Shown: positions 2,729-33,436 of the stretch, in pieces
Position numbering within the stretch: the stretch's first letter is position 1
Layout of the letters: each line of letters opens with the position of its first letter
Assembly: GCA_964481395.1 (NCBI GenBank)
Contig: CAYZYG010000009.1
Location: 959 to 64,958 of the forward strand
Length of the DNA: 64,000 nucleotides
Reading direction: 5' to 3'
Origin: an uncultured Vicinamibacterales bacterium
GTDB taxonomy: Bacteria; Acidobacteriota; Vicinamibacteria; Vicinamibacterales; JAKQTR01
Notes under the pieces: generated by a model
What the model saw: only the letters and a program-made list of their open reading frames with translations
Database searches by the model: none
Told to the model about the DNA's origin: nothing
Translations under genes and position numbers: made by a program

Positions 2729-4936
2729 TTACTTCCAATACGGCCTCGCCAGCTCCACCACGTCCGGGAAGTCGATCCTGAACTTCTTCAGCGTGGCCTC
2801 CGTCGGCACCCCGTCCGTCGTCCAGCCTCGGCGCTTGTACACCGCATCCACGAGCTTGTTGTAGCGGTCCATCCGCCACTCGCGGTGCAGCCTCACTTTC
2901 TCCTCGGTCGTTTTGCCGGCCGGATCGATCCCGACGATGTCCTTGAGCTGCTTGTCGTAGCGCTCGGATCGTGACTCGTACTCTTCATTGGTGACCGGTC
3001 CGACCGCCCTGTACGGCGGGATGTCGAACTCGCGCCCGCCCTGGCCCATGCGCAGGTTGAACATCCGCTGGAAGTTGTAGACCGCTTCCGACTGCTCGAT
3101 CAGGCTCTGGCGGTCGAGCGGCTTCCCGGTAATACCCGTGTACAGCTCGAGGTAGTTGTTGACGTGCGCCGGAACCTTGGCGGCCTCAGGCCCGGGGTAC
3201 ATCTTCGCGTTGTCCGGGGGCTCGATGTCGTTCCACGGCAGCTTGCACAGCCCCTGCAGGCTGAACCACGTTCGGAACAGGGGGAAGTAGTGCAAGGCCT
3301 CGGCCTTGTCCTCGAAGGTGGGGATCTGGTTGTTCACCATGTCCATGAAGATGAGCCACGCCTCATCGTGCTGGGGGCCCTTGTTGGCCAGCGCGTATCC
3401 GCCCTGCTGCGCCAGCGACTCCTTGGACATGTACTGGGAGATCTCGAGGCCCTTGATCTGCATTCCGATGTCGCGGATCAGCTGCGGATCTCCCCATCCC
3501 TTCTCGATGAAGAGGTTCTGCATGTAGCGGACGCCCTTGCCCACGATCACGCCGAAGCCCTCGCCACGGGCCATGTCGTGGAGGAGCTGCACCTCGGACT
3601 CGCCGTTGCCCCAGCCGAGGTCGAGGCCCCCCGTGCGCTCCTTGTTCAGGATGCCCCGGTCGTAGCACTCCATCACGAACGCGCAGGCCGTGCCGTACGA
3701 GATCGTGTCGATGCCGTAGGTGTCGCAGTAGAAGTTCACCTCGAGCAGCCAGTCGGGATCGAACAGCCCGCAGTTGGACCCCAGGCCGGCCGCGTTCTCG
3801 TACTCGGGCCCGTCCACCGTGACGATGTGGCCCTTGTACGGCCCCGTGCGCACGACATGACCGTCCGCGCCCTTCGAGCAGGCCATGCCGCACCCGTACC
3901 AGCACCGGTCCGGCACCGCCTGTGTGAACCGTTTGTCCCACACCTGCGAGTCGATCTTCGGCGTGTCCGGGTGCTTGCCGTACTGGAAGTTGTAGACCGG
4001 CAGCAGGTCGTACGCGTCCATGATCTCGACGAGGTGCGCCGTGCCCTGCCGGCGCATGTGGTTCTGCTCGTCGTCGAAGTCGTGGATTTCCTTGTTGATG
4101 ATCCGCCCGACCTTGATGACCTGCTGGATGTCCGCCGCGTTGTTCAGGTCCGGCCCCATCTTGAAGCCATGGACGACGAGCGCCTTCAGCTTCTTGTCGC
4201 GGAACACCGTGCCCGTGCCGCCGCGGCCGGCCTGCTTCAGGCGGACGGCCCCGCGCTTCGGGTCGTACCAGGAGAAGTTCAGGCAGCCCATGTAGGCCGA
4301 CTCGGCGGCCTTGCCCGCTGACACGACCGCCACGTTCTGCATGTCCTTCGGATTGTCCGCGTACATGTGCGTGAAGATCTCGGCGGCGATGTGACTGTCG
4401 GGCGTCTCCTCGGGCGCCTCCTCGATGGTGATCGTGCCCTTCGGGCCGTCGATGACCACGATGACGTCGGTCTTCGCCTTGCCCCGGATCTCGACGGCAT
4501 CGAAGCCGACGAACTTGACGAGGGGCCCGAAATACCCGCCCACGTTGCAGTCGATGGGAATGCTCGTCATCGGCGACAGCGACACGACGATCGACTTGCC
4601 CGAGCCTGCGTACTGCGTGTTGCCCGCCAGGGGCCCCGGACTGATGATGATCTCGTTTTCGGGGTCGTTCCACTTCGTCTGCGGGGTGATGGCGTGCCAG
4701 AGATAGTAGAGGCCGAAGCCGCGGCCGCCGGTGAAGACGTCGATCATCTCGTCGGTGATGGCCTTCTCGCTGATCGCCATCGTGTCGAGATCGATGAAGA
4801 GGGTCCGCCGGGTGTAGCCCCGGACCGGCTGGCTCGGCGTGAACGGCACCTCGACGAGCACCTTGTGCGCGGCTTTCATCGCCGGCACGTCGTCGGCGTA
4901 GTTGGTTCGGACCTTGTAATCGTAGGTTACGGACAT
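2729..4936 (-). CDS. aor: Aldehyde:ferredoxin oxidoreductase family (tungsten/molybdopterin AOR), long form of 735 aa
   Basis: N-terminal GYTRRTLFIDLD...FTGGRGFGLYYLW and an overall AOR-family pattern across the full-length ORF. Confidence 0.9.
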   Translation of the reverse strand: MSVTYDYKVRTNYADDVPAMKAAHKVLVEVPFTPSQPVRGYTRRTLFIDLDTMAISEKAITDEMIDVFTGGRGFGLYYLWHAITPQTKWNDPENEIIISPGPLAGNTQYAGSGKSIVVSLSPMTSIPIDCNVGGYFGPLVKFVGFDAVEIRGKAKTDVIVVIDGPKGTITIEEAPEETPDSHIAAEIFTHMYADNPKDMQNVAVVSAGKAAESAYMGCLNFSWYDPKRGAVRLKQAGRGGTGTVFRDKKLKALVVHGFKMGPDLNNAADIQQVIKVGRIINKEIHDFDDEQNHMRRQGTAHLVEIMDAYDLLPVYNFQYGKHPDTPKIDSQVWDKRFTQAVPDRCWYGCGMACSKGADGHVVRTGPYKGHIVTVDGPEYENAAGLGSNCGLFDPDWLLEVNFYCDTYGIDTISYGTACAFVMECYDRGILNKERTGGLDLGWGNGESEVQLLHDMARGEGFGVIVGKGVRYMQNLFIEKGWGDPQLIRDIGMQIKGLEISQYMSKESLAQQGGYALANKGPQHDEAWLIFMDMVNNQIPTFEDKAEALHYFPLFRTWFSLQGLCKLPWNDIEPPDNAKMYPGPEAAKVPAHVNNYLELYTGITGKPLDRQSLIEQSEAVYNFQRMFNLRMGQGGREFDIPPYRAVGPVTNEEYESRSERYDKQLKDIVGIDPAGKTTEEKVRLHREWRMDRYNKLVDAVYKRRGWTTDGVPTEATLKKFRIDFPDVVELARPYWK

Positions 4937-5223: not shown

Positions 5224-5406
5224 ATGAGCGCTGTGAAGAACGAGGAGTTGTTGACGGCTGGTGCCATCGCCAAGGCTGTTGGTGCGTCCGACGCCAAGGT
5301 GAAGAAGGCCATCAAGGACCTGGCCATCCAGCCCAAGGCCAAGAAGGGCGTGTGCGCCTACTACGGGGCGGATGCGGTTGCCAAGGTGAAGAAGGCGCTG
5401 GGGTAG
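5224..5406 (+). CDS. Small Lys/Ala-rich protein (60 aa), possibly DNA-binding
   Basis: Strong RBS GAAGGAGGG 6 nt upstream of the ATG. GC3-rich codons. Internal repeat G-A-x-D-A-K-V-K-K-A occurs twice. Confidence 0.65.
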   Translation: MSAVKNEELLTAGAIAKAVGASDAKVKKAIKDLAIQPKAKKGVCAYYGADAVAKVKKALG

Positions 5407-5411
5407 GGGGA

Positions 5412-5472
5412 GAAGACAGAAGACGCGTGGGGAAAGAGTAGATAGTAGATAGTAGACAGTAGACAGTAGACA
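5412..5472. repeat. Heptamer tandem repeats (GAAGACA x2, then GTAGATA/GTAGACA x5)
   Basis: Units read directly: 5412-5425 and 5438-5472. Located between convergent gene ends. Confidence 0.9.
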
Positions 5473-5506
5473 GGCGGAGCATCGCTGCCGCCGAGGCCAT
5501 CGATCC

Positions 5507-7210
5507 CTACGGCGTCCGGCAGAGCCCGGCGAGGGCGGGGCCGAGCTTCGGGTGGGCGTCGAACTGCGTCACGTAATCCGACTCGCGGCGACCGCCCTTT
5601 GCCAGGATGACGGCCCGGAGCGCGGCCCGCTCCGCGTCGGTCCACCCGCCCACGGGGAGCAACGCCACGAGCGGCGCCCACCGTTCCCAGAACAGACGCT
5701 GGCCCGGGCGAAGCCGCCGCCAGGCCGGGAGACCGAGCGCCGCCCCGGCCTCATCGGCGAGCGTCTCTGTGGCCCGCTCACGGTCGGATCCGAATCGCGC
5801 CGCCACCATCCCGGTGACTCGCAGCGCCACGGCATCCGTCTCGAGCGCGCCGAGCACGTCGCCTCTGTCGGCGCCGAGGCTGAAGAACACGTTGGCTGCG
5901 ACGAGCCGCCGGAGCACCGGCAGACCGGTGCGATAGCCGGGACGGCTGCGGACGCGCTCCGCCTCGCGCCGGGCGAGCGTCGACGCGCGCCGATCGCGCG
6001 GCCTGAACCCGAGCTTGTAGTAGAACCACCACGCGCCCGACTGCAGCCCCTCGTCGTTGTGGTGACCGAGTTGGTACGGGTCGACGGTGATCGTGTCCAC
6101 GCCGAACATCGCATGCACCGCAGCCAGCAGGCGCCCGTAGATCCACGCCGCTTCGGCGCCGCGGAAGCTCTCGAAGACGTTGTACGCAACTTCGGCGGAG
6201 CGCCAGAGCGCGCCGAACAGGGCGTAGCCGATCGGCACGCCGTTGCGCAGCGTCAGGAAGCCGTAGACGGCGTCGAGCAGCAGCCGCTGTTCGACCTGCA
6301 CGCCCATGCAGGCGAACTCGAGCCCGTTCCCGCAGTCGATCAGGCGGACGTCCTCGGGGTCGGCCGCCGCAAAGCAGTAGAGATCGCGGGCCCGAGTGAC
6401 CATGGCCTCCCGCGAGAGGTCGATGAGTTCGACGGCCCGCCGCCCGGTGACCGGACGGATGCGGCGCGGCGGCACTCGCATGTCGACTCTCAGGTCGGGA
6501 CGCGCCGAGCGCAGCGGGCCGGGCTGCGCGACGACCGGGTGGCCGGCGACGCGCGCACGCGTCCGGTCAGGCGAGAGCGGCCCTGCCTTCACGCGCAACG
6601 TCAGGTTCAGCTCGTCGTACAGCTGGTCGCCAAGGAGGTCGTGGCCGGTCACGGCCGCGCTTCGTCGCACGAGGAAGGCGGCATCGGTCTCGCCGCCGCA
6701 CAGCCGGTCCAGCCACGCGCGGCCCAGCAGCGGGGGCTCGTCGAACACCGCCCGCTCGGACCAGAGCGTCAGCAGCGGAAGACGCGTGTCGAGAGCGGCC
6801 TCGTTCTCCCCGCTGTCCCATTCGACCGTCAGCGCATCGCCGGTACGCGCCGCCAGCCACCGCGCGGTGGACGCGGCAAACGGATAGACCGTATCCGTAC
6901 CGGCGATGCCGCTGTTCTCCAGGGCTGCCTGGTGGCGTCGAAGGTCCGTCCGGCGGTCGAAGACCATCAGCATCACCCGCACGGTCTCGAAGACGCGCGC
7001 GTCGTCCGGATAAGCGTAAAGAAACACCAGCGTTTCGTGCAGGAGGACGACCTGATCCACCCGAGACAGGGTGGATCGTCGCAGCAGGCGAAGCAGGCTG
7101 AGCTTCCGTCGTGCCGCGTCCCCGACGAACTCGGTCTTCAGCGCGGCCAGGGCGGTCAACGCCCGGCCGGGGCTTTGCCGTCGCGGAGAACGGGATGTTG
7201 AAGGGCTCAT
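5507..7210 (-). CDS. Conserved-looking hypothetical protein (567 aa); the C-terminal half is possibly acyltransferase (GNAT)-like
   Basis: Long ORF with an ATG start and normal amino-acid composition. The segment GYALFGALWRSAEVAYNVFESFRG...YKLGFRP weakly recalls a GNAT fold. No firm family assignment is possible by eye. Confidence 0.6.
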   Translation of the reverse strand: MSPSTSRSPRRQSPGRALTALAALKTEFVGDAARRKLSLLRLLRRSTLSRVDQVVLLHETLVFLYAYPDDARVFETVRVMLMVFDRRTDLRRHQAALENSGIAGTDTVYPFAASTARWLAARTGDALTVEWDSGENEAALDTRLPLLTLWSERAVFDEPPLLGRAWLDRLCGGETDAAFLVRRSAAVTGHDLLGDQLYDELNLTLRVKAGPLSPDRTRARVAGHPVVAQPGPLRSARPDLRVDMRVPPRRIRPVTGRRAVELIDLSREAMVTRARDLYCFAAADPEDVRLIDCGNGLEFACMGVQVEQRLLLDAVYGFLTLRNGVPIGYALFGALWRSAEVAYNVFESFRGAEAAWIYGRLLAAVHAMFGVDTITVDPYQLGHHNDEGLQSGAWWFYYKLGFRPRDRRASTLARREAERVRSRPGYRTGLPVLRRLVAANVFFSLGADRGDVLGALETDAVALRVTGMVAARFGSDRERATETLADEAGAALGLPAWRRLRPGQRLFWERWAPLVALLPVGGWTDAERAALRAVILAKGGRRESDYVTQFDAHPKLGPALAGLCRTP

Positions 7211-7379
7211 GTGCGACGCAGTATCGGGCCGGCGTCGGTCCCGGTCAAGAGGCCGGGCGCCTGCGGGGCGTCAGTTCGTGGTGGACGCCGCACGGCCGGT
7301 CACGCCACCGCCCGGTTCCGACCCGCGCTCGCATCCTGCCCGGTGCCCGGATATGATCGACCCCGCACGAGGTGGAGGG

Positions 7380-7832
7380 ATGACGACCAGAGCCGACATT
7401 GACGGGTTCATCGCCGAGAAGACGCTGGCCATCGCCGGGGTGTCCCGAGGGGGGAAGAAGTTCGGGAACACCATCCTGAAGGAACTGCGGGCGAAGGGCT
7501 ACACGATCCTCCCCGTGCATCCCCACGCCGACGCGGTGGAGGGTCTGCCGGCGTACCCGTCGTTCGCAGCGCTGCCGGAGCAGGCTGGCGGGGCCATCGT
7601 CTGCGTACCGCCGGCCGAGGCGGCGAAGGTCGTGCGGGCGGCAGCCGAGGCGGGCATCAGGCGCATCTGGTTGCAGCAGGGCGCCCAGTCGCCTGACGCG
7701 CTCGTCCTCTGCCGGGAGCACGGGCTGAGCGTCGTCCACGGGCACTGCATCCTGATGTTCGCCGAGCCCGCAGGGCTTCCTCACCGCATCCACCGGTGGA
7801 TCTGGCAGATCATCCGAAAGGTCCCGGCCTGA
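7380..7832 (+). CDS. CoA-binding domain protein (YccU/YneT-like)
   Basis: ATG at 7380 after GGTGGAGGG. IAGVSRGGKKFGNTILKELRAKGYTILPVHP is typical of single-domain CoA-binding proteins. Confidence 0.8.
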   Translation: MTTRADIDGFIAEKTLAIAGVSRGGKKFGNTILKELRAKGYTILPVHPHADAVEGLPAYPSFAALPEQAGGAIVCVPPAEAAKVVRAAAEAGIRRIWLQQGAQSPDALVLCREHGLSVVHGHCILMFAEPAGLPHRIHRWIWQIIRKVPA

Positions 7833-9490: not shown

Positions 9491-10480
9491 ATGCGCCGGA
9501 AGAAAGCGGCCGACGACGTGGCGGTGAAGGCGCAACTGGCGCAACTGGCCGGCGTGCCGCCTGACGAGATCGTGATCACCCGTAACACCACCGAGTCGCT
9601 GGGCACGGTGACCCACGGCATCGACCTCGCGCCGGGGGACGAGGCGGTGATGTGCAACCAGGACTACGGTTCGATGCTGGAGCAGTTCCGCCAGCAGTCG
9701 AAGCGCCGCGGGCTCAAGTGCGTCGAGATCGCCATTCCGCTGCACCTAAAGGACGACCAGGAAATGGTCGACACCTACGCGGCGGCGATGACGCCGCGCA
9801 CGAAGCTGCTGCTCGTGTCCCACATGGTGAACATCACCGGGCAGATCCTGCCCGTGCGCAAGATCGCCGACATGGCCCACGCGCGGGGCGTTTCGGTGAT
9901 CGTGGACGCGGCGCACTCGTTCGCCCACCTGAACTTCACGATTCCCGAGCTGGACGGCGACTTCTTCGGCGCGAGTCTGCACAAGTGGCTGTGTACGCCG
10001 CTCGGCGCCGGCATCCTGCACATCAAGAAGGATCGGATCAAGGACGTGTGGCCGCTCCTTGGCGACACCTCTCGGCCCGCAGACGACATCCGCAAGTTCG
10101 AGCGTCTCGGCACGCAGCCCGTGTGGACGATGCTGGCCGTTGCCGACGCGATCCGCTTCCACACGATGATTGGCGCGGCGCGCAAGGAAGCGCGGCTGCG
10201 TTACCTGCAGCAGTACTGGACCGACAAGGTGCGCGGGTTCCCGAAGGTCTACCTGAACACGCCGACCGGCAACCGCGCGTGCGGCATCGCGAACGTAGGC
10301 GTCACGGGGATGACGCCGAAGGAGCTGGCGGACACGCTCTTCGACCGGTTCAACATCTACACCGTGGCCATCGACACGGTGGCCGTCAAAGGGACGCGCG
10401 TCACGCCGCACCTCTATACGACGACGGCCGAACTCGACGCGCTCGTGAAGGCGCTTCAGGAACTCGCCCGCCGGGCCTGA
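9491..10480 (+). CDS. Class V aminotransferase-fold PLP enzyme (cysteine desulfurase / isopenicillin-N epimerase-like), apparently 5'-truncated
   Basis: Motifs ITRNTTESL, SHMVNITGQILP and ASLHKWL (PLP lysine). In-frame homologous-looking codons (LENGYSSPEP...FYMR) extend upstream to the TAG at 9383-9385 with no ATG/GTG/TTG start. Confidence 0.7.
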   Translation: MRRKKAADDVAVKAQLAQLAGVPPDEIVITRNTTESLGTVTHGIDLAPGDEAVMCNQDYGSMLEQFRQQSKRRGLKCVEIAIPLHLKDDQEMVDTYAAAMTPRTKLLLVSHMVNITGQILPVRKIADMAHARGVSVIVDAAHSFAHLNFTIPELDGDFFGASLHKWLCTPLGAGILHIKKDRIKDVWPLLGDTSRPADDIRKFERLGTQPVWTMLAVADAIRFHTMIGAARKEARLRYLQQYWTDKVRGFPKVYLNTPTGNRACGIANVGVTGMTPKELADTLFDRFNIYTVAIDTVAVKGTRVTPHLYTTTAELDALVKALQELARRA

Positions 10481-15121: not shown

Positions 15122-18100
15122 TCACTCCACCGCGCGCGTCGGCGAGCCCGCATAGATGCGATCCGGCTCGAGCGCATCCCGCTTCATGACGATGCCCTGG
15201 GGCGCGACGAAGGCCCGGTCTCCGATGTCGGCTCCGTAGAACACGACCGTATGACTGCCGACTGAGGCGCTGCGACCGACCCGCACCTTGTCGATCTTCA
15301 GGATGCGATCCTCGAAGGTGTGCGCCTGCAGATCGCACGACACGGTCGAGTCGTCCTCGAAGTGGAGCATGTCCGGATCGACGACCTGAGCGAATCCCGG
15401 TCCCAGCACGACGCGCCGGCCGATCCGCATCCCCATCAGCCTGAGGACCGCGTTGATGAGGAGCGTGCCCTCGAGCTGCGCCAGGACCCCCCGCGCCCAT
15501 TGATTCCAGGCGACGTAGAAGAAGTCCCACCGGCTGCACCAGCACGACCACAGCGGATGCTGTCCGGAACGCACGCGACCGAGCAGCAGCCACTTCAGGA
15601 CGACCGTGGCTCCCACGAGCACGCCCGCGGCGGCCAATGTCACGGCCGGGGCCAGCACGAAATGTGAGAACGCGCCACCCACCCGCCTGGAGCCCAGGAA
15701 CAGGCCCGCGTACCACAGGTACGCGATCAGGAGCGGCACGACCGGCAGGCCCAGGCGCAGAGACTCCCAGAAGAATCTGGTCGCATAGCGCAGGGCGTCA
15801 GGGTCATGGGTGAGGCTGCGATCGGCGGTGACCACCTCACGGCGCGGCAGCTCCATGGGCGGCACGCCGAACCACGTGCTGTCGGTCCGGGCCACGTCGG
15901 CATCCGCGACGGTGGCGACTCCGATGAACAGGTCTGCCGGCCACGCGTGGCCGGCGGGCACCACTGCGTGATTGCCGAGGAAGGTGCTCCGTCCGAGGCT
16001 CGTGTCGGCGATCGTCACGGTGCCGCGATGCCGCCAGGGCGCGCAGAAGTAAATACCGTCCGCGAAGAAGCTCTCGTCGCCAATCGACACGGTTTCGGGC
16101 AGGACGTCGATGATCGTGCTCACCTCGCAGTTCCTGCCGATGCGCATCCCTGCCAGGCGCAGCCACCACGGCCAGAACAGGCCTCCACTCAACCAGCGGC
16201 TGGCCGCGTCGACGATGCCCGTTCTGGTCCAGATTCGGATGGACTCGGCGCTCCACTGGCTGACCACGCCGGGCGAGATGGGGCGTGTGAGCCGCATGAC
16301 GACGCCCTGCGTGACGAGCCTCGCGGCCACGACGACGAACGCTCCGGCGATGACGATCACCACGCCGCGCGCCGAGACTGCCGGATGCTCCAGCCACGCC
16401 AGGACCCGCGAATCCAGGTCGGGCACCAGGGCCGCGGCAGCGATCATCCCGAGGACGATCGGGATCCACGACGCCAACGTCGCCGCCGTGCGGCCACCGA
16501 TGGCCAGCAGCGTGTAGCCGACTGGCCCGATCTCGCGTCCGCGCGTCACGTCTGGTGCCGGCGGTGCCTCGCCGGTCCTGGTCGCAGGCACCCCGGTCCA
16601 CCGCTCGTGGTCACCGACGGACTGGCCGGCAGGCAGCCACGAGAGTGGTGCCAGAAACCCGCCGCGTCCGACCGCGCTGCCGGGGCTCATGCCAGCCCGC
16701 ACGTCGAGCGTCGCGTCGGCGCCGATGTGGATTGGCCCGATGACGACGTGGCCGTCCTCGCGCTCGACGAGCCGGGCGCCACTGTCCTGCGCGAGCGTGG
16801 CGCCGTCTCCAATCGAGAGCAGGTCCCACCCCCCACGCTGCAGGTCCACACCGCGGTGGATGTAGACGCGCTTCCCGATCTGCGCGCCGAGGCACCGCAG
16901 AACGAAGGGCAGCACCGGCGTGCCTTCGATCCACCGCCAGGGGATCGACTGCGCCGTGCTCACCACAATCCAGTGCCTGGTGTAGAAACCGCTCCACACC
17001 GGCGCGCGCGTGGGCGTGTACCGACCCACGGCGAGCCGCTTGACCAGCAGGGTCAGCGGCACGGAGGCGAGGAGCCGTGCCAGCGTGGCGAGCACGATCA
17101 CCACCGGCATCGCGGCGACCACCCCGACGAGGCCAACGTTGCTCAGGGCCCATGGCAGGATCTCGAACGCTGCGAAGGCCAGCACCGCGCCCACGGCGAC
17201 GACTCTCAGCGCGAGCCAGACCGACTGGATCGTCGTCGAGAGAACGGGGCGGCCCGCTCGCTGGGGACCTCCCGCGCGGGGCGGCAACGTGGACAGCGCC
17301 GTGCTCTTCCGCGCGCGCATCCGTGCGGCGAGCGCGGCGACGGTCCGCGCCTCGTACAAGTCGCGGACCGTGGCCGTAGCCCCCCCGGCCACTCCCGCGT
17401 CACGCAACTCGCAGACGGCCGCCACGGCGGCCAGAGAGTCGCCGCCGAGATCGAGGAAGAAATCGTCGTCAACCGATAGCGGGCCGTCATGGTGGAGCGA
17501 GGCCGCGAACGCGGCCGCGACAGCCCGTTCGTCATCGGAACGCGCGCCGACGACAGCCTCACGGCCGTTGCCGTTCTCAGGCGGAAGGTCCGGCAACGAC
17601 TTCCGGTCCAGCTTGCCGCCGACGGTCGTTGGCAGATCCGCCGTCACGCCGAACCGGTTCGGAACCATGTACTCCGGGAGCACGCGTCGGAGCGCGGTCT
17701 TCAGCGCGGCAGTATCGACCGGCCCCAGCGGACCGTTCGGGACGATGTGGGCGGCGAGAACCTGGCGTGCGCCCGAACCCTGGACGCGGCACGCGGCCGC
17801 GCGGATGCCGGGCAGCGCCGCGAGGTGCGCCTCGATGGCGGTGAGTTCGACCCGATACCCGCGGAGCTTCACCTGCCCGTCGATGCGTCCCAGATACTCG
17901 AGGGCGGAATGGCCATTGCGGCGAACGAGATCCCCGGTGCGGTAGATCCGTCCGTGAACGGGATGGACCGGAAACTTCGTCGCGGTGACGGCCTCGCGAC
18001 CCCTGTACCCGCGAGCCAGTCCTGGCCCGGCAAGGCACAGCTCGCCAGGCTCCCCGTCCGGCAGCTCCTCGAGCGCATCGTCGAGCACGAAGGCACGATG

Positions 18101-19087
18101 TCCCCGGACGGGCCATCCGATCGTCACGGGCTCTCCCGGCCGAACACGGCCGCGGACGACGGTAACGGAGCACTCGGTCGGACCGTATCCGTTCTCAAGC
18201 CACAGGCCCTCAGACCAGAGGTCGGCCAGATCCGCCGGCAGCGCCTCACCGCCGACGTAGACGAGCTTCAGATCGGGCAGCTCGGCCCGGGGGTGGCTGC
18301 AGCCCATGCTGCGAAGGAGCGTCGGCGGCGGGCAGAAGACGGTGATGCGTTCCCGGCGGAGCCAGGGGACGAGATCCGGCCCCAGCCTCACGGTGTCGTC
18401 GTCCAGCGGTACGAGTGTTGCCCCAGCGGCGAACGCGAGCCAGCTCTCCTCGAGCGACGAATCGTAGGCCGGGGAGGAACACTGCGCGACGCGTTCGTTC
18501 GGCGTCAGACGGAAGTACTCGAGATCGGACGCCACGAGATTGCCGATGCCGCGATGCTCGATCATCACGCCTTTGGGCTCGCCTGTCGTGCCCGAGGTGT
18601 AGATGACGTACGCGAGATTGGAGAGATCGCCGTCGCGGCCGTTCAGCGACCGGACGGGAGGCGGCAGGCCTCGGGGAACCACGACCGGTCGCGGCCGGGC
18701 CCCGATCGCCGTCAGCCTGGCCTGGCCCTCTTCGCTGGTGATGACCGCCGCGGGATCGGCATCGTCCAGAATGCGGCGCACGTGTTCGTCCGGGAACACC
18801 GGATCGAGGCAGGTGAAGGCGCCGCCGACCTTCATCACGCCAATCTGCGCCGCGTACAACGCCGGCGTTTCACGGCCGAGAAAGACAGCGACGAGGCCTT
18901 CCGGAGCGACCAGGCTCTCCAGGGATTCGGCGACGGCGTCCGCCTGATGGCGGAGCGCCGCGTAGGTGATCTGCTGCCGATCGCGCCGCCCCCGTCCCGG
19001 TGGGACGTCGACGGCCACGCGGTTCGGGCAGCGCCCGGCGACCTCGTCGAAGAGCCGGTGGAGGAGCGGTATGCCGTCCGGGGGCAT
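15122..19087 (-). CDS. Pls/PosA-type single-module NRPS: adenylation + thiolation + three TM-separated hexapeptide-like C-terminal domains
   Basis: A-domain cores YTSGTTGEPKG, NGYGPTE, YRTGD, GRIDGQVKLRGYRVEL. Carrier motif LGGDSL. These are followed by three MRIGR/RVYIH-type left-handed-helix-like segments, each preceded by hydrophobic TM pairs. 1321 aa. Confidence 0.9.
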   Translation of the reverse strand: MPPDGIPLLHRLFDEVAGRCPNRVAVDVPPGRGRRDRQQITYAALRHQADAVAESLESLVAPEGLVAVFLGRETPALYAAQIGVMKVGGAFTCLDPVFPDEHVRRILDDADPAAVITSEEGQARLTAIGARPRPVVVPRGLPPPVRSLNGRDGDLSNLAYVIYTSGTTGEPKGVMIEHRGIGNLVASDLEYFRLTPNERVAQCSSPAYDSSLEESWLAFAAGATLVPLDDDTVRLGPDLVPWLRRERITVFCPPPTLLRSMGCSHPRAELPDLKLVYVGGEALPADLADLWSEGLWLENGYGPTECSVTVVRGRVRPGEPVTIGWPVRGHRAFVLDDALEELPDGEPGELCLAGPGLARGYRGREAVTATKFPVHPVHGRIYRTGDLVRRNGHSALEYLGRIDGQVKLRGYRVELTAIEAHLAALPGIRAAACRVQGSGARQVLAAHIVPNGPLGPVDTAALKTALRRVLPEYMVPNRFGVTADLPTTVGGKLDRKSLPDLPPENGNGREAVVGARSDDERAVAAAFAASLHHDGPLSVDDDFFLDLGGDSLAAVAAVCELRDAGVAGGATATVRDLYEARTVAALAARMRARKSTALSTLPPRAGGPQRAGRPVLSTTIQSVWLALRVVAVGAVLAFAAFEILPWALSNVGLVGVVAAMPVVIVLATLARLLASVPLTLLVKRLAVGRYTPTRAPVWSGFYTRHWIVVSTAQSIPWRWIEGTPVLPFVLRCLGAQIGKRVYIHRGVDLQRGGWDLLSIGDGATLAQDSGARLVEREDGHVVIGPIHIGADATLDVRAGMSPGSAVGRGGFLAPLSWLPAGQSVGDHERWTGVPATRTGEAPPAPDVTRGREIGPVGYTLLAIGGRTAATLASWIPIVLGMIAAAALVPDLDSRVLAWLEHPAVSARGVVIVIAGAFVVVAARLVTQGVVMRLTRPISPGVVSQWSAESIRIWTRTGIVDAASRWLSGGLFWPWWLRLAGMRIGRNCEVSTIIDVLPETVSIGDESFFADGIYFCAPWRHRGTVTIADTSLGRSTFLGNHAVVPAGHAWPADLFIGVATVADADVARTDSTWFGVPPMELPRREVVTADRSLTHDPDALRYATRFFWESLRLGLPVVPLLIAYLWYAGLFLGSRRVGGAFSHFVLAPAVTLAAAGVLVGATVVLKWLLLGRVRSGQHPLWSCWCSRWDFFYVAWNQWARGVLAQLEGTLLINAVLRLMGMRIGRRVVLGPGFAQVVDPDMLHFEDDSTVSCDLQAHTFEDRILKIDKVRVGRSASVGSHTVVFYGADIGDRAFVAPQGIVMKRDALEPDRIYAGSPTRAVE

Positions 19088-28374: not shown

Positions 28375-29343
28375 GTGTTCAACCAGACTGAGGAAGCGTC
28401 AATCCGCGCGTGGAACGACGGGCTCGACGGCCACGTGACGCTGCACGTGCTGCTGAGCGACGACACGAGGAGCGAACGTGTCGAAGCTTTTGCCAGGCAG
28501 TTCGCGGCGCTCGCGCCGCGCGTGGGCCTGGCCATCGACCGGAGGCCAGGCGCCGAGGCTCCATCGATGCACGTGAGCCGTCGCGTGCGGTACCTGGCCG
28601 TCCCTGTCGGGACCGAACTGGCGCCCTTTCTGGAGTGCGTCCGCCGCTTATCTCCATGCGTGACGGACGCCTCCCGATCCGCACTCGCCCGCGAGCCCGG
28701 TTCAGGCGACGCGGACGTGCACCTCTACGTGTCGCCGCACTGCCCGCATTGTCCGGTCGCGACGCGGGCGTTGTTCGGGCTGCTCGATGAAAACCCGGCG
28801 GCGAGACTCGTGGTCGTCGACGTGGACCTGCTGCCCGAAATGGCGACGCGCGACGCCGTTCGCTCGGTGCCGACGGTGCTGGTGGGCCGTCACTACCGCT
28901 CGACGGGGGCGATCTCGGTCGACGAGATTCGCCGGGCGCTGGCGAGCACCGAGCCCGATGCGGCCGCTATCGGTCGGCTGCTCGACGGGGGCGAGGCCGC
29001 AGCCGTGGCGGACATGATGGCTGAGGCCGGGCGGGTGTTTTCCACAGTCCTCGACCGCGTGGCACACGAGACGATGACCGTCCGGCTCGGGGCCATGGCC
29101 GCCCTGGAGCGGCTCATCGAGATCGCGCCCGAGGTGGCGGCCACCGCGGAGTCCGGGCTCTGGGAGCGGATCGCCGGCACCGGGCGCGAGGCGACGGGAG
29201 ACGTGCTCTACATGCTCGGTGAGGCAGGGACACCGGCCACCGTGCCGTGGCTCAGGGCGTTCCACGAGGCGACGGCGGATCCGGAGCTGCAGGAGGCGGT
29301 GACGGACGCCCTCGCGCGGCTGGCCGAGCGCGCAGAGCGCTGA
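28375..29343 (+). CDS. Thioredoxin/glutaredoxin-fold protein (CPHC) with a C-terminal HEAT-like segment
   Basis: HLYVSPHCPHCPVA...VRSVPTVLV is a classic Trx-fold active site plus cis-Pro region. GTG start as in the ORF track. Confidence 0.7.
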   Translation: MFNQTEEASIRAWNDGLDGHVTLHVLLSDDTRSERVEAFARQFAALAPRVGLAIDRRPGAEAPSMHVSRRVRYLAVPVGTELAPFLECVRRLSPCVTDASRSALAREPGSGDADVHLYVSPHCPHCPVATRALFGLLDENPAARLVVVDVDLLPEMATRDAVRSVPTVLVGRHYRSTGAISVDEIRRALASTEPDAAAIGRLLDGGEAAAVADMMAEAGRVFSTVLDRVAHETMTVRLGAMAALERLIEIAPEVAATAESGLWERIAGTGREATGDVLYMLGEAGTPATVPWLRAFHEATADPELQEAVTDALARLAERAER

Positions 29344-29437: not shown

Positions 29438-31390
29438 CTAGCGGGCGGCCTTGGCGCCAGCCGGCACGACGTACACCGACTCGAGCACCTTGTTCGATTC
29501 CTCGTCCTGCACGAAGGCCACGACCACGAGGTTGCCGGTGATCTCGTGCTTCTTCTGGCGGAACCGGTACTGGCCGTCCCGCTCCTTGACCTCGAACTCA
29601 TCGAGGTGGGCCTTCGCGTCGGCGACGGCCTTGGCGATGTCGAACGTGTACTCGAACGTCCCGCCCTTGCCCGGCTGGAGGGCGAACCCCAGCACAGCCT
29701 TCGCGTCGACGGCCATGCTGCGCACGACCATGGGGTGGAAGCGTTCGCCGTTCTCGCCGCTGTAGGTGACCGACTCCTCGGCGAGCACGATCTGCAGTCG
29801 CGGCTTTACCGCCTTTGCCGAGAGTCTGGAAACCGTGGCCCTGACTGTGACCGTCGCCGGCGCCGCGGTCGCCTGGAGGGCGATGCGCGCCCCCGGCTGC
29901 TCGGCGAGACGCTTCTCGATCGCGGGATCGACCTTCGACTCGAAGATCGACTTCGCGTTGTCGGCGCTGCCGCCGCCGCCGTCGCGGTCACCGTCGAAGA
30001 AGTAGCTGGGCGAGCTGTTGACGGCGTAGTACTGCCGTCGCGCGACCGTGGCAGGATTCACCATCGGGTCGGGCTGGGGAATGTGGACGTGGTAGTTCAG
30101 CAGGATGAAGTCGTCCCGGGTGTAACGTTCGTGCGCGGCATCGAAGGCGAGACCCGCCCCCACGCACGGAGGTCAACCCGCGCCGGGGAAGACCTCGGCC
30201 AGCACGGTCTTCCCGGTCGACCTCGCCCCGGCCTTCCGGGCGAACGGGGTGACGGCGAAACGCGTGTGATCGCGGCGGTAGCGCTCGTCGAGCATCGTCT
30301 CGAGACCGTCGAGCGAGCCGTTGTGCGTCTTGCTGTACACGGCCTCGAGTTCCTTGGTCTCGTCGGCCGTGATGCGGCCCGTGAGTGCGAGGGCACTCAG
30401 GTACTCGAGTTGCTGGACGTCGTTGCCGGCCTTCTTTGCGACCTCGGCCAGCGTTCGGGCAACCGGCGCCATGGCGCTGGCGGCCGGCTTGGCCGCGTAG
30501 GCCTCGTTCAGTGCCTTTACGCCTTCTGCGTCCTTGCCCCGCTTGACGAGAATCTGTCCGAGCGTCGCCAGCGCGGAGGCGCGGACCGACTTGAAGGCGG
30601 CCCGCATGTCATCGTCCGTGGGCGCCTCCGGCCGCGTGGGCGGGCGTGGCGGCGTGGCCGGCCGAGGGGGCGCGGGTGGTGCGAGACTGACCTGTGTCAC
30701 CCCGCCCTTGGTCGAGAACCGGTAGGCGGGGGGCGGAGGCGCGGGCGTTGACGGTTCGGCCGCCGGCTTGTCAGTCGCGGGTCCTCCACCGGCCGCCGCC
30801 GGTTTCGGCTGGGAGGCCTGCGCCGTCATCTTCTCGTAGTTGGCGAGCGTGCGCTCGTACTGCTTCCGGCGCATGTCCATGTAGGCGCGCTCGTCCATGT
30901 CCGCGAGCGCCTTTCTGGCGAACTCCTCCGCTTCTTCGGAGTAGATACCCGCGTTCACCAGCCGAGACGCGAGGTTGGCGTACGTGGAGTAGATGGGTGT
31001 CGTGTCCGCTCGCTTCTCCGCCTCGGCGATCTCCGCCTCCGTGCCGGCGAGGAACTTCGCGCGTGAGTCCTTGTAGGCGGCGAGCACGGACGTGGTGATC
31101 TGGCTCCTGGCCATGCTGAGGAGCTGCGGCGTGGCTTTCGGGAAGTCGGCGATGAACTTCTCGAGCGCCTCCACACGCTTGAGCGGATTCGTCTCGCCGG
31201 CGGCCGCGTTGAAGGCCTTGGCTTCGTCGGGAAGCTCTTTCGCCGGCTCGGCCGGCTTCTGGGCACCGGCCGCGGCGGCAGGCTTCTGGTCGGGCGGCTT
31301 CTGCTGCGCCGTGTCCTGGGCGCGGGGCCACGACGTCGCCGCGAGAACGAGGGCGATGATGAGAACGGTGAATCGACGGAATCGTGCCAT
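29438..31390 (-). CDS. Exported Pro/Ala-rich helical protein fused to a thioredoxin-like domain with a candidate selenocysteine redox motif U-P-P-C (in-frame TGA at 30173-30175)
   Basis: Track ORFs 30173..31663 and 29438..30163 share one frame and are separated only by TGA. The junction reads KTVLAEVFPGAG-TGA-PPC-VGAGLAFDAA. ATG at 31390 has RBS AAGGAG and a signal peptide. A SECIS-like hairpin follows the TGA. Confidence 0.6.
30130..30168 (-). promoter_or_regulatory. Candidate bacterial SECIS hairpin downstream of the in-frame UGA
   Basis: With U of UGA as +1: lower stem 8-13 / 41-46 (CGUGCG/CGCACG), upper stem 15-21 / 27-33, apical loop G22 G23 U24 C25 U26. Confidence 0.5.
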
Positions 31391-31466
31391 GGGGTGCTCC
31401 TTGAGCTGAGCGAGGAACAGTGCCGGGCATTCTAACATCGCCGGGGGCGGGCCCAAACCTTCGCCA

Positions 31467-32515: not shown

Positions 32516-32759
32516 GTCGGGTCTCCTGCGCCCTGTCGATCTGCATGACGCGGCGCCGGGGCAGCCGCCCCTGGCGCGCGCCGCTGTGTTGTGCTGTCGT
32601 GAGGCCGAACGGTCACAGTATACCCGGACCGACCTGGTGCTCCCGCTGGAACCGTTGCGAACCGGGCGCCGCGCTCCGGAACTTCGACAACGAACCACTG
32701 ATACGGGCCACCGGTGGACGTGTTACACTAGTCAGAAGACTAGTCAGAAGGAGACTGTC

Positions 32760-33017
32760 ATGCCCGCGTGGCCGGTTCAGGATGCGAAGGCGAGATTCAG
32801 TGAACTGCTCGAGACCTGCCTGGCCGAAGGGCCTCAGGTGGTGACGAAGCGGGGAGCCGAGGCGGCCGTTCTGGTGCCGGTCGAGCAGTGGCGCCGGCTC
32901 GAAACGTCGGCGCGCCCGACCCTGAAGTCGCTGCTGCTGTCCGATCGCGGTCGCACGCGCCTGACGATTCCGAAGCGGGGCAGCGCCAGGCGCCGCGGGT
33001 CGGCGACGCTGGAGTGA
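32760..33017 (+). CDS. Type II antitoxin (Phd/YefM-like), partner of the downstream PIN toxin
   Basis: WPVQDAKARFSELLE...PQVVTKRGAEAAVLVPVEQW pattern. 85 aa. Ends 5 nt before the toxin start. Confidence 0.85.
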   Translation: MPAWPVQDAKARFSELLETCLAEGPQVVTKRGAEAAVLVPVEQWRRLETSARPTLKSLLLSDRGRTRLTIPKRGSARRRGSATLE

Positions 33018-33022
33018 CCTGC

Positions 33023-33436
33023 ATGTTCCTGCTCGACACCAACGTCGTCTCGGAATTGCGCAAACCGCGGCCTCATGGCGCCGTTCTGGCCTGGCTGGAA
33101 GGGGTGGAGGACCGGCGTCTGTTCGTGTCGGCCGTCACGCTCGCCGAGATTCAGGCGGGCATCGAACTGACCCGTCAGCAGGACACGATCAAGGCCGCCG
33201 AGATCGAGTCATGGCTGGATCAGGTCGCGGAGTCATGGAACGTCCTGCCGATGGACGTCGCGGCATTCCGGCTGTGGGCGAGGCTGATGCACGGCAGGCC
33301 GGACGCCCTCTACGAAGATGCGATGATCGCGGCCACCGCCCGCGTGCATCACCTCACGGTGGTCACACGCAACGTCCAGGACTTCGCACCGTTTGACGTG
33401 TCGGTGCTGAACCCGTTCAGGACGGCGAGGCGCTGA
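33023..33436 (+). CDS. vapC: PIN-domain ribonuclease toxin VapC
   Basis: MFLLDTNVVSE...AMIAATA...VVTRNVQDF carries the PIN acidic residues. Confidence 0.9.
   Translation: MFLLDTNVVSELRKPRPHGAVLAWLEGVEDRRLFVSAVTLAEIQAGIELTRQQDTIKAAEIESWLDQVAESWNVLPMDVAAFRLWARLMHGRPDALYEDAMIAATARVHHLTVVTRNVQDFAPFDVSVLNPFRTARR

Follow-up and report, generated by a model that had tools for sequence, protein, structure and literature searches.

A 2026 catalogue of prokaryotic selenoproteins holds 119 families. One of them, NF045500 or 'Hypothetical protein GOS_C', carries a UxxC motif, in which U stands for selenocysteine (Sec), and UxxC selenoprotein versions of the DsbG-like or 'thiol:disulfide interchange protein' type are catalogued as well (PMC13188914). 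GOS_C was found in Global Ocean Sampling data as a thioredoxin-like protein, with 74 Sec and 312 Cys sequences (Zhang and Gladyshev, 2008, PMC2398784). HBP35 has a thioredoxin-like motif, shows thioredoxin activity and binds hemin (PMC2907840). Acidobacteria are recorded as Sec decoders with three selenoprotein families (PMC1794560). The subject here is a gene on a 64-kb stretch of DNA (the window) from an uncultured Vicinamibacterales bacterium (contig CAYZYG010000009.1 of assembly GCA_964481395.1). It is very probably a genuine selenoprotein gene, with the UGA at 30175-30173 as its Sec codon. Nucleotide numbers are window positions, and residue numbers refer to the fused product of the window gene.

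One reading frame across a TGA codon

The complete selenoprotein gene, as delimited by the sequence, its translation and the continuation of the frame in relatives, would span 29438..31390 on the minus strand and comprise 650 codons, with Sec as residue 406, and a TAG stop. It starts with ATG 31390, and a ribosome-binding site (RBS), AAGGAG, can be read directly from the sequence 6 bases 5' of this ATG (31397..31402, minus strand). The frame runs through 405 sense codons to the TGA at 30175-30173 and then through 244 further codons to TAG 29440-29438. The TGA is the only break in the frame and lies within G-[TGA]-P-P-C. The junction reads ...TVLAEVFPGAG-TGA-PPC-VGAGLAFDAAHERY..., with CCT CCG TGC GTG as the codons after the TGA. 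The redox motif U-P-P-C occupies 30164..30175 (minus strand), and C409 within it is the sole cysteine of the whole protein. The GTG that appears to start a 241-aa open reading frame (ORF) is the Val codon, fourth 3' of the TGA; the bases preceding it are ...GGTTGACCTCCGTGC, and a purine-rich RBS is absent there. The initial annotation had described two minus-strand ORFs in one frame, split by the TGA alone, the second of them without an ATG or an RBS of its own and the first with AAGGAG and ATG 31390; sequence and translation bear this out. The signal peptide that it also named is predicted from the N-terminal sequence.

Composition is coding-like on either side of the TGA, with a GC content of 0.88-0.91 at third codon positions (GC3) and 0.43-0.49 at second positions (GC2). 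A search of the window for junctions of the type coding-TGA-coding returned the selenoprotein locus and one ordinary gene boundary, and no others. Genome-wide reassignment of UGA was considered and rejected: the ordinary genes of the window are delimited normally under translation table 11, and only this junction is coding on both sides of its TGA.

The conservation of the TGA was followed through homologues. A protein search with the fused sequence, in which U was replaced by C, gave 300 relatives, and the C-terminal part as query gave 305. The best 120 of the 300 relatives (55-95% identity) are all about 400 aa long; they span exactly the N-terminal 62% of the query and so stop at the TGA. 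The C-terminal relatives listed, of the 305, all start with (M/V)GA[GS]LAF, which corresponds to the GTG after U-P-P-C. For 160 related loci, taken from metagenomes and species-representative genomes, DNA was retrieved with at most 10 kb on each side of the match, and 149 loci could be aligned. At the position of the Sec codon 71 of these loci, the window among them, have TGA, far beyond what chance would give; 59 have TGC and 19 have TGT, and a codon besides these three does not occur there in the 149 loci. The exchange of Sec and Cys at the first position of the CxxC motif, which had been predicted from the window sequence, is thereby documented by 78 Cys loci and 70 TGA orthologues beyond the window gene itself. 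The Cys orthologues are single polypeptides of 520-670 aa with Cys at the TGA column. They have precomputed Pfam matches to Omp28, DUF1223 and TPR, and NCBI sometimes names them 'Omp28-related outer membrane protein'. An exhaustive profile search puts the size of the family at 2166 representative clusters with E<=1e-3, of which 467 reach E<=1e-30; the majority are full-length proteins of 500-650 aa.

No complete Sec locus has a further stop in this frame until 240-285 codons past the TGA. Among 48 unique Sec sequences the P-P-C codons between the TGA and the GTG show synonymous third-position changes only, and are therefore translated. A neighbour-joining tree of the C-terminal domain places the 64 unique Sec forms in one clade without any Cys form inside. 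The largest protein distance within this clade is 0.47, against 0.44 to the nearest Cys forms. As the TGA has been retained across such substantial divergence, it must be held by selection. Together, the aligned-codon counts and the monophyly of the TGA forms are the grounds for reading the UGA at 30173..30175 (minus strand) as U406. Members of the Sec clade are found in metagenome-assembled genomes (MAGs) labelled Vicinamibacterales or unclassified Acidobacteriota, and in metagenome contigs. Cys forms have a wider spread that takes in Vicinamibacterales, Bryobacterales, Blastocatellia, Terriglobales and other groups. Three distant family members, P0428, P0437 and P0473, start right after the CxxC position (VDKAFDA..., VGADLAFDA... 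and MDLAFDA...). Each may represent another Sec form of independent origin, or simply a contig truncated at its 5' side.

Two explanations dispense with recoding. The TGA is one base away from TGC and TGT, and Sec machinery is absent from the window, as would suit a nonsense pseudogene or an error of sequencing or assembly in which TGC or TGT was misread. It is hardly credible that this accounts for the locus. Many samples contribute to the 71 loci with the TGA, no other stop or frameshift occurs in the 240-285 downstream codons across a clade with protein distances of up to 0.47, and GC3 in the downstream part is of the coding type. Moreover, the window gene is present in four independent run assemblies, with an identity of 1951-1953/1953 nt and with the TGA kept in each, so that assembly error is excluded. 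In the second explanation translation truly ends at the TGA, and a separate gene, the Omp28-like ORF of 241 aa, is translated from the GTG nine bases downstream, perhaps by re-initiation. The GTG is indeed close to the stop, and every gene caller gives two ORFs (405 aa and 241 aa) in every assembly examined. Two genes are nevertheless very improbable here. Such a split would sever a thioredoxin fold between beta1 and alpha1, inside the active-site motif, and would leave the second product without RBS, signal peptide and catalytic residue. The orthologues are single polypeptides with Cys at the TGA codon, and the P-P-C codons, which lie 5' of the GTG, are under purifying selection at the protein level. 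Neither outcome that would have spoken against a Sec codon, a codon other than Cys or TGA in homologues or a TGA produced by assembly, was seen.

A hairpin after the TGA and the machinery for selenocysteine

In bacteria, a selenocysteine insertion sequence (SECIS) commonly lies within the coding region. The published bacterial model (bSECIS) calls for a loop of 3-9 nt, a stem of 4-16 bp, a G in the first two loop positions, a distance of 16-37 nt from the UGA and a minimum free energy (MFE) of <= -7.5 kcal/mol (PMC13188914). The E. coli element is a 17-nt minihelix of nt 15-31, with G23 and U24 (PMC8659212). The window gene has a SECIS-type hairpin at nt +14 to +34, counting the U of UGA as +1 (30142..30162, minus strand). 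Its bases are U14 G15 G16 G17 G18 G19 C20 G21, then the apical loop of 5 nt, G22 G23 U24 C25 U26 (GGUCU, 30150-30154), then C27 G28 C29 C30 U31 U32 C33 G34. The stem has 6-8 bp, with a core of +16..+21 paired to +27..+32; the spacing from the UGA is 18 nt and the MFE is -10.7 kcal/mol. All of these values fall within the bSECIS model.

The hairpin was compared between 48 unique Sec and 74 unique Cys sequences. All six core pairs (16-21 with 27-32) form in 48/48 Sec sequences but in 4/74 Cys sequences, and the MFE of +14..+34 is -10.7 +/- 0.6 kcal/mol in the former against -4.3 +/- 2.9 in the latter. Third-position entropy over codons 5-11 is 0-0.4 bit in Sec against 1.1-1.7 bit in Cys sequences. 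The third positions of neighbouring codons (3 and 12-17) vary in the Sec sequences at about 1.0-1.9 bit, and the suppression of synonymous change is therefore local to the hairpin. One pair has changed on both sides, G21:C27 to C21:G27, in 4/48 Sec sequences, by way of two synonymous changes (GCG to GCC and CUC to CUG). The initial annotation had suggested a search for such an element, and a hairpin at the right distance, with synonymous variation suppressed and one compensatory pair, is what this comparison yields. These sequence comparisons show a SECIS-like element under RNA-level constraint, and the reading of the UGA as Sec is strongly supported.

Positions 23-24 are GU in 48/48 Sec sequences; in the Cys sequences they are AU or AC, as part of an Asp codon, in 73/74 and CG in one. 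Codon 8 after the UGA (30152-30154) is Asp (GAY) in 72/74 Cys forms and Gly or Ser (GGU or AGU) in all Sec forms, and G23 and U24 are invariant even where the amino acid differs between Gly GGU and Ser AGU. The change from Asp to Gly or Ser in the Sec forms is attributed to the requirement of the SECIS loop for G23-U24. At codon 8 the RNA element thus appears, quite visibly, to dictate the protein sequence.

The hairpin resembles the E. coli fdhF-type SECIS in being a hairpin of 17-21 nt that begins 11-13 nt past the UGA, with a loop G23/U24 equally spaced from it. It differs from the E. coli element in the G-U wobble pairs at the base of the stem and in a weak lower helix, and SelB binding is a prediction from its sequence. 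The MFE fold of the window sequence also contains a lower helix (10-15 with 39-44); across orthologues this is only 82.6% paired, and it was not counted. A permissive Rfam scan of 30050-30250 gave chance matches to miRNA and sRNA models only.

ARAGORN finds no tRNA of any kind in the window, and across 1.77 Mb of related loci it finds no tRNA-Sec. Among about 40 ORFs of the window compared with Pfam and NCBIfam there is no SelA, SelB or SelD. A six-frame motif scan of all fetched loci for these three proteins gave one match, a SelD in L002, the Sec-form locus of the Vicinamibacterales MAG CWP4-1.bin.183. This selD scores 390.9 bits against TIGR00476 (cutoff 125) and is located 8.5 kb upstream of the selenoprotein gene. 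Of the Sec machinery that the initial annotation had proposed to look for, selD alone came to light, beside one orthologue, and no sel gene or tRNA-Sec within the window.

Three further observations concern related enzymes. In L002 (53-1603, plus strand) the frame of selD is continuous with a stretch of 140 residues that represents the C-terminus of a cysteine desulfurase of the NifS/IscS kind, which suggests a NifS-SelD fusion protein; the locus is truncated at its start, ahead of the N-terminus. In the window, 2729-4936 (minus strand) encodes an aldehyde:ferredoxin oxidoreductase (AFOR_N and AFOR_C). At 9491-10480 (plus strand) is a class-V aminotransferase of the SufS, cysteine desulfurase or selenocysteine-lyase type, with sub-cutoff matches only and no linked selD here.

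The UGA might also be recoded to another residue. A selC-like tRNA(Cys), together with a SelB-like factor, could insert Cys, or a near-cognate tRNA (Trp, Cys or Arg) could read through the codon. The TGA, the hairpin and the Cys orthologues show recoding and not the identity of the inserted residue, for which Sec is read from sequence patterns. Non-canonical selC-like tRNAs and allo-tRNAs have been reported from Acidobacteria among others (PMC7609411), and selA, selB and selC were not found in the window and the fetched loci. Recoding to a residue other than Sec is nonetheless improbable. The geometry of the hairpin and its G23/U24 loop are those of SelB-binding elements, and a true selD lies near the gene in one genome of the Sec clade (L002). 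The exchange of Sec and Cys at the first CxxC position of a thioredoxin fold is the commonest selenoprotein pattern (PMC13188914), and simple read-through would leave the frozen synonymous sites unexplained.

Protein architecture, genomic context and proposed function

Taken as a selenoprotein, the product begins with a predicted signal peptide for export by the Sec pathway, MARFRRFTVLIIALVLAATSWPRA, without a lipobox Cys (31319..31390, minus strand); comparable N-termini are found in orthologues. An all-helical TPR-like domain follows at about residues 55-385 (30236..31228, minus strand), as judged from an orthologue model, Foldseek and the TPR Pfam matches of homologues. Within it, at about residues 193-262 (30605-30814, minus strand), lies a low-complexity insert rich in Pro and Ala (PAAAGGGPATDKPAAEPSTPAPPPP...PPRPPTRPEAP). 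The insert is about 70 residues long in the window protein, and the Cys orthologue P0241 has a much shorter one. The C-terminal part, about residues 390-645 (29456..30223, minus strand), is assigned by Pfam, NCBIfam, model and Foldseek as a thioredoxin-fold domain with a beta-sandwich of the Omp28, HBP35 or DUF1223 kind. It contains a candidate cis-Pro, P461 (30008-30010), and the motifs YHxHIPxPDP and SGENGxRFH, which are invariant in the alignment.

Individual domain models give weak scores. Omp28 (PF11551) reaches 32.1 bits in the window protein and 34.2 in P0241, both just below the gathering cutoff of 34.9, and many homologues carry a precomputed PF11551 match. Pfam Redoxin matches weakly across the motif in the window protein (E=0.076), and two NCBIfam models also match this protein weakly, the Omp28 lipoprotein model and NF045500 'Omp28-related selenoprotein'. 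A PDB sequence search with the C-terminal domain found nothing significant.

Structure was predicted with AlphaFold2 for P0241, which is 45% identical overall to the window protein, from 73 aligned sequences (mean predicted local distance difference test score 89.1; predicted template modelling score 0.84). Residues 1-60 of P0241, comprising the signal peptide and a low-complexity linker, are disordered, and 13 helices fill 72-326. A strand at 347-353 is followed by C357-P-P-C360 at the start of helix 358-373, a strand at 379-385, the loop YHLHIPRPDP, another helix, P412 just before strand 413-416, and a beta-sandwich that extends to residue 594. In this model the domain is a thioredoxin fold with Sec or Cys at the attacking position and a loop of the cis-Pro type, and the motif sits between beta1 and alpha1, as the initial annotation had expected of a CxxC active site. 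The best PDB match of the model in Foldseek is HBP35 of P. gingivalis (5y1a, E=1.9e-8, template modelling (TM) score 0.57 over 293 columns). The Omp28 domain 2r2c is a weak match at rank 50 (E=1.1e-3, TM 0.58 over a 121-residue target), and the remaining significant matches are TPR proteins. Thioredoxin-fold topology would place the YHxHIPxPDP loop at the active-site end of the sheet, and this loop may, as a matter of speculation, form a ligand or metal site with SGENGxRFH.

The function of the family is approached through its gene neighbourhoods. Periplasmic thioredoxin-fold proteins classically receive their reducing power through the importer DsbD. In about 60 Cys-form loci the gene is followed in the same orientation, 30-300 nt downstream, by a three-domain DsbD gene (DsbD_N, DsbD_TM and a thioredoxin-like domain). 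An example is 5294-7432 (plus strand) of L156, with DsbD_N, DsbD_TM and Thioredoxin_7; others are L010, L027 and L017. Because the Cys orthologues directly precede dsbD, members of the family are presumably periplasmic reductases or isomerases. For the window protein, which is judged by analogy with these orthologues, the odds that it acts as a periplasmic reductase seem about even. The TPR domain presumably holds the protein substrate. In the Sec clade, either dsbD has moved elsewhere in the genome or the Sec form uses another partner.

The neighbours of the gene in the window (DUF1697, DUF1579, PIN, helicase, Trx_3 and fucose isomerase) are not conserved beside it in other genomes, and no operon partner can be proposed for the Sec form. 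Convergent with the selenoprotein gene is 28375-29343 (plus strand), whose product of 322 aa carries a CPHC motif and a Thioredoxin_3 domain. This product matches the AhpF N-terminal domain weakly, and likewise TIGR02187 'PDO_seleno_TRX' (48 bits, cutoff 185). PDO_seleno_TRX is itself a catalogued UxxC selenoprotein family, and the 322-aa window protein has Cys. The adjacency of this gene is seen only in the near-identical contigs L161-L164 and not in other genomes. Further along, 32630-33436 (plus strand) holds a PhdYeFM-type antitoxin ORF and then a PIN-domain protein, a VapBC-like toxin-antitoxin pair that sits between the DUF1579/DUF1697 genes and a DEAD-box/DUF3516 helicase. At 15122-19087 (minus strand) is a 1321-aa protein resembling nonribosomal peptide synthetases (AMP-binding and PP-binding), whose long C-terminal part has no Pfam match.

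The following mechanism is proposed for the window gene. Translation would begin at ATG 31390 and yield one exported selenoprotein of 650 residues. At the UGA at 30175-30173, SelB would deliver Sec-tRNA(Sec) to the ribosome, recruited by the hairpin that lies within the coding sequence 14-34 nt downstream and presents G23 and U24 in its GGUCU loop, and translation would go on to the TAG at 29438. The product would consist of a cleavable signal peptide, the TPR-like helical domain and the thioredoxin-fold and beta-sandwich domain of the Omp28/HBP35 type. Its active site, U406-P-P-C409, where helix alpha1 begins, would alternate between a selenol/thiol and a selenenylsulfide state. The protein would act as a periplasmic thiol-disulfide oxidoreductase, most likely a reductase of protein substrates bound by the TPR domain.

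Several observations weigh against this reading. The exception of the L002 selD aside, selA, selB, selD and tRNA-Sec were found neither in the 64-kb window nor in the flanks of the other loci, and that the source genome decodes Sec is something we infer. A selD alone also serves the synthesis of selenouridine. The hairpin lacks the bulged U17 of the fdhF-type SECIS, and no Rfam family matches it, a scan of the whole window at gathering thresholds having given no match at all. Its covariation amounts to one compensatory pair, probably a single event, and five of the six core pairs never vary. The structure is that of a Cys orthologue with 45% identity, which stands in for the window protein. 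The survey found dsbD near no Sec-form locus, among them ten with 10-kb flanks and the window itself, so that the DsbD-dependent reductase role of the Sec form is extrapolated from the Cys orthologues.

A wider scenario can be put forward tentatively, with the odds somewhat against it. The gene would represent an uncatalogued family of TPR and Omp28-like U-P-P-C selenoproteins, confined to a Vicinamibacterales-like clade of Acidobacteriota and derived from a DsbD-linked Cys ancestor. The gain of Sec would have accompanied the loss of the dsbD operon, and hence a change of redox partner or role. The Sec form could, for example, have become a DsbD-independent periplasmic reductase or a peroxidase that uses the His-rich YHxHIPxPDP and GENGxRFH motifs near the active site.

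Comparison with described families

In current annotation the redox active site of these proteins is hidden. The Sec-clade homologues retrieved (about 240 clusters listed) are all represented by two pieces, one of about 400 aa that is named 'TPR repeat protein' or 'hypothetical protein' and an orphan ORF of 241 aa, and the active site is therefore invisible. The locus allows an annotation to be corrected in Acidobacteriota and gives curators of NCBIfam and Pfam a defined family on which a model can be built. With it the Vicinamibacterales-like Acidobacteriota, a group known here only from MAGs, gain a selenoprotein, which points to the use of selenium in the periplasm. With 64 unique Sec and more than 70 Cys forms, the family lets the chemistries of Sec and Cys be compared in a clean natural pair, and the choice between Asp and Gly or Ser at codon 8 is a plain example of a SECIS constraining protein sequence. 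It also raises the question of why the Sec clade lost its linkage to dsbD.

The initial annotation had not recognised the architecture as that of any described selenoprotein family. No entry among the 119 catalogued families corresponds to it (PMC13188914), and a literature search found no paper joining Omp28 with a selenoprotein and nothing relevant joining Vicinamibacter with selenium. The Omp28-related superfamily, however, already holds a UxxC family, and in this respect the architecture is less foreign than had been supposed. By sequence comparison, the nearest described selenoprotein is this family, GOS_C / NF045500, which is a relative at the level of the superfamily and not a family to which the window protein belongs. 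The window protein scores 17.6 bits against NF045500 and P0241 scores 46.9, and neither reaches the cutoff of 200. The match covers about 160-170 residues of the 377-position model, at positions 36-208 for the window protein and 27-189 for P0241. Both families have a thioredoxin-like fold with UxxC, belong to the Omp28-related superfamily, have Sec forms beside many Cys homologues, carry a SECIS-like hairpin after the UGA and have a thiol redox role that is presumed only. GOS_C comes from marine metagenomes, whereas the window family comes from MAGs of Acidobacteriota (Vicinamibacterales-like) and metagenome contigs. Judged by hidden Markov model score and published description of GOS_C, the window family differs in its phylum and in having an N-terminal TPR-like domain of about 330 residues.

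HBP35 (5y1a) is the best structural match to the C-terminal half and shares with the family a thioredoxin-like CxxC motif and an extracytoplasmic location, the latter predicted for the family. Sequence identity to HBP35 and Omp28 is about 18%, and unlike the window protein these have Cys, no Sec and no TPR domain. They are cell-surface proteins of Bacteroidota; Omp28 is named a lipoprotein in its PDB entry, and HBP35 has a C-terminal secretion domain. With the DsbD-dependent periplasmic reductases of the DsbC, DsbG and CcmG/TlpA type, the family shares an exported thioredoxin fold with CxxC or UxxC, and its Cys orthologues stand in an apparent operon with a full DsbD. It differs from them in lacking significant sequence similarity (the Redoxin match being the weak one given above), in its added beta-sandwich and TPR domain, and in the lost dsbD linkage of the Sec forms. 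The mechanism itself is already known from bacterial selenoproteins. Sec at the first position of CxxC in a thioredoxin fold, a SECIS in the coding region and Cys orthologues make up their most common pattern, and the window gene follows it without introducing a new principle.

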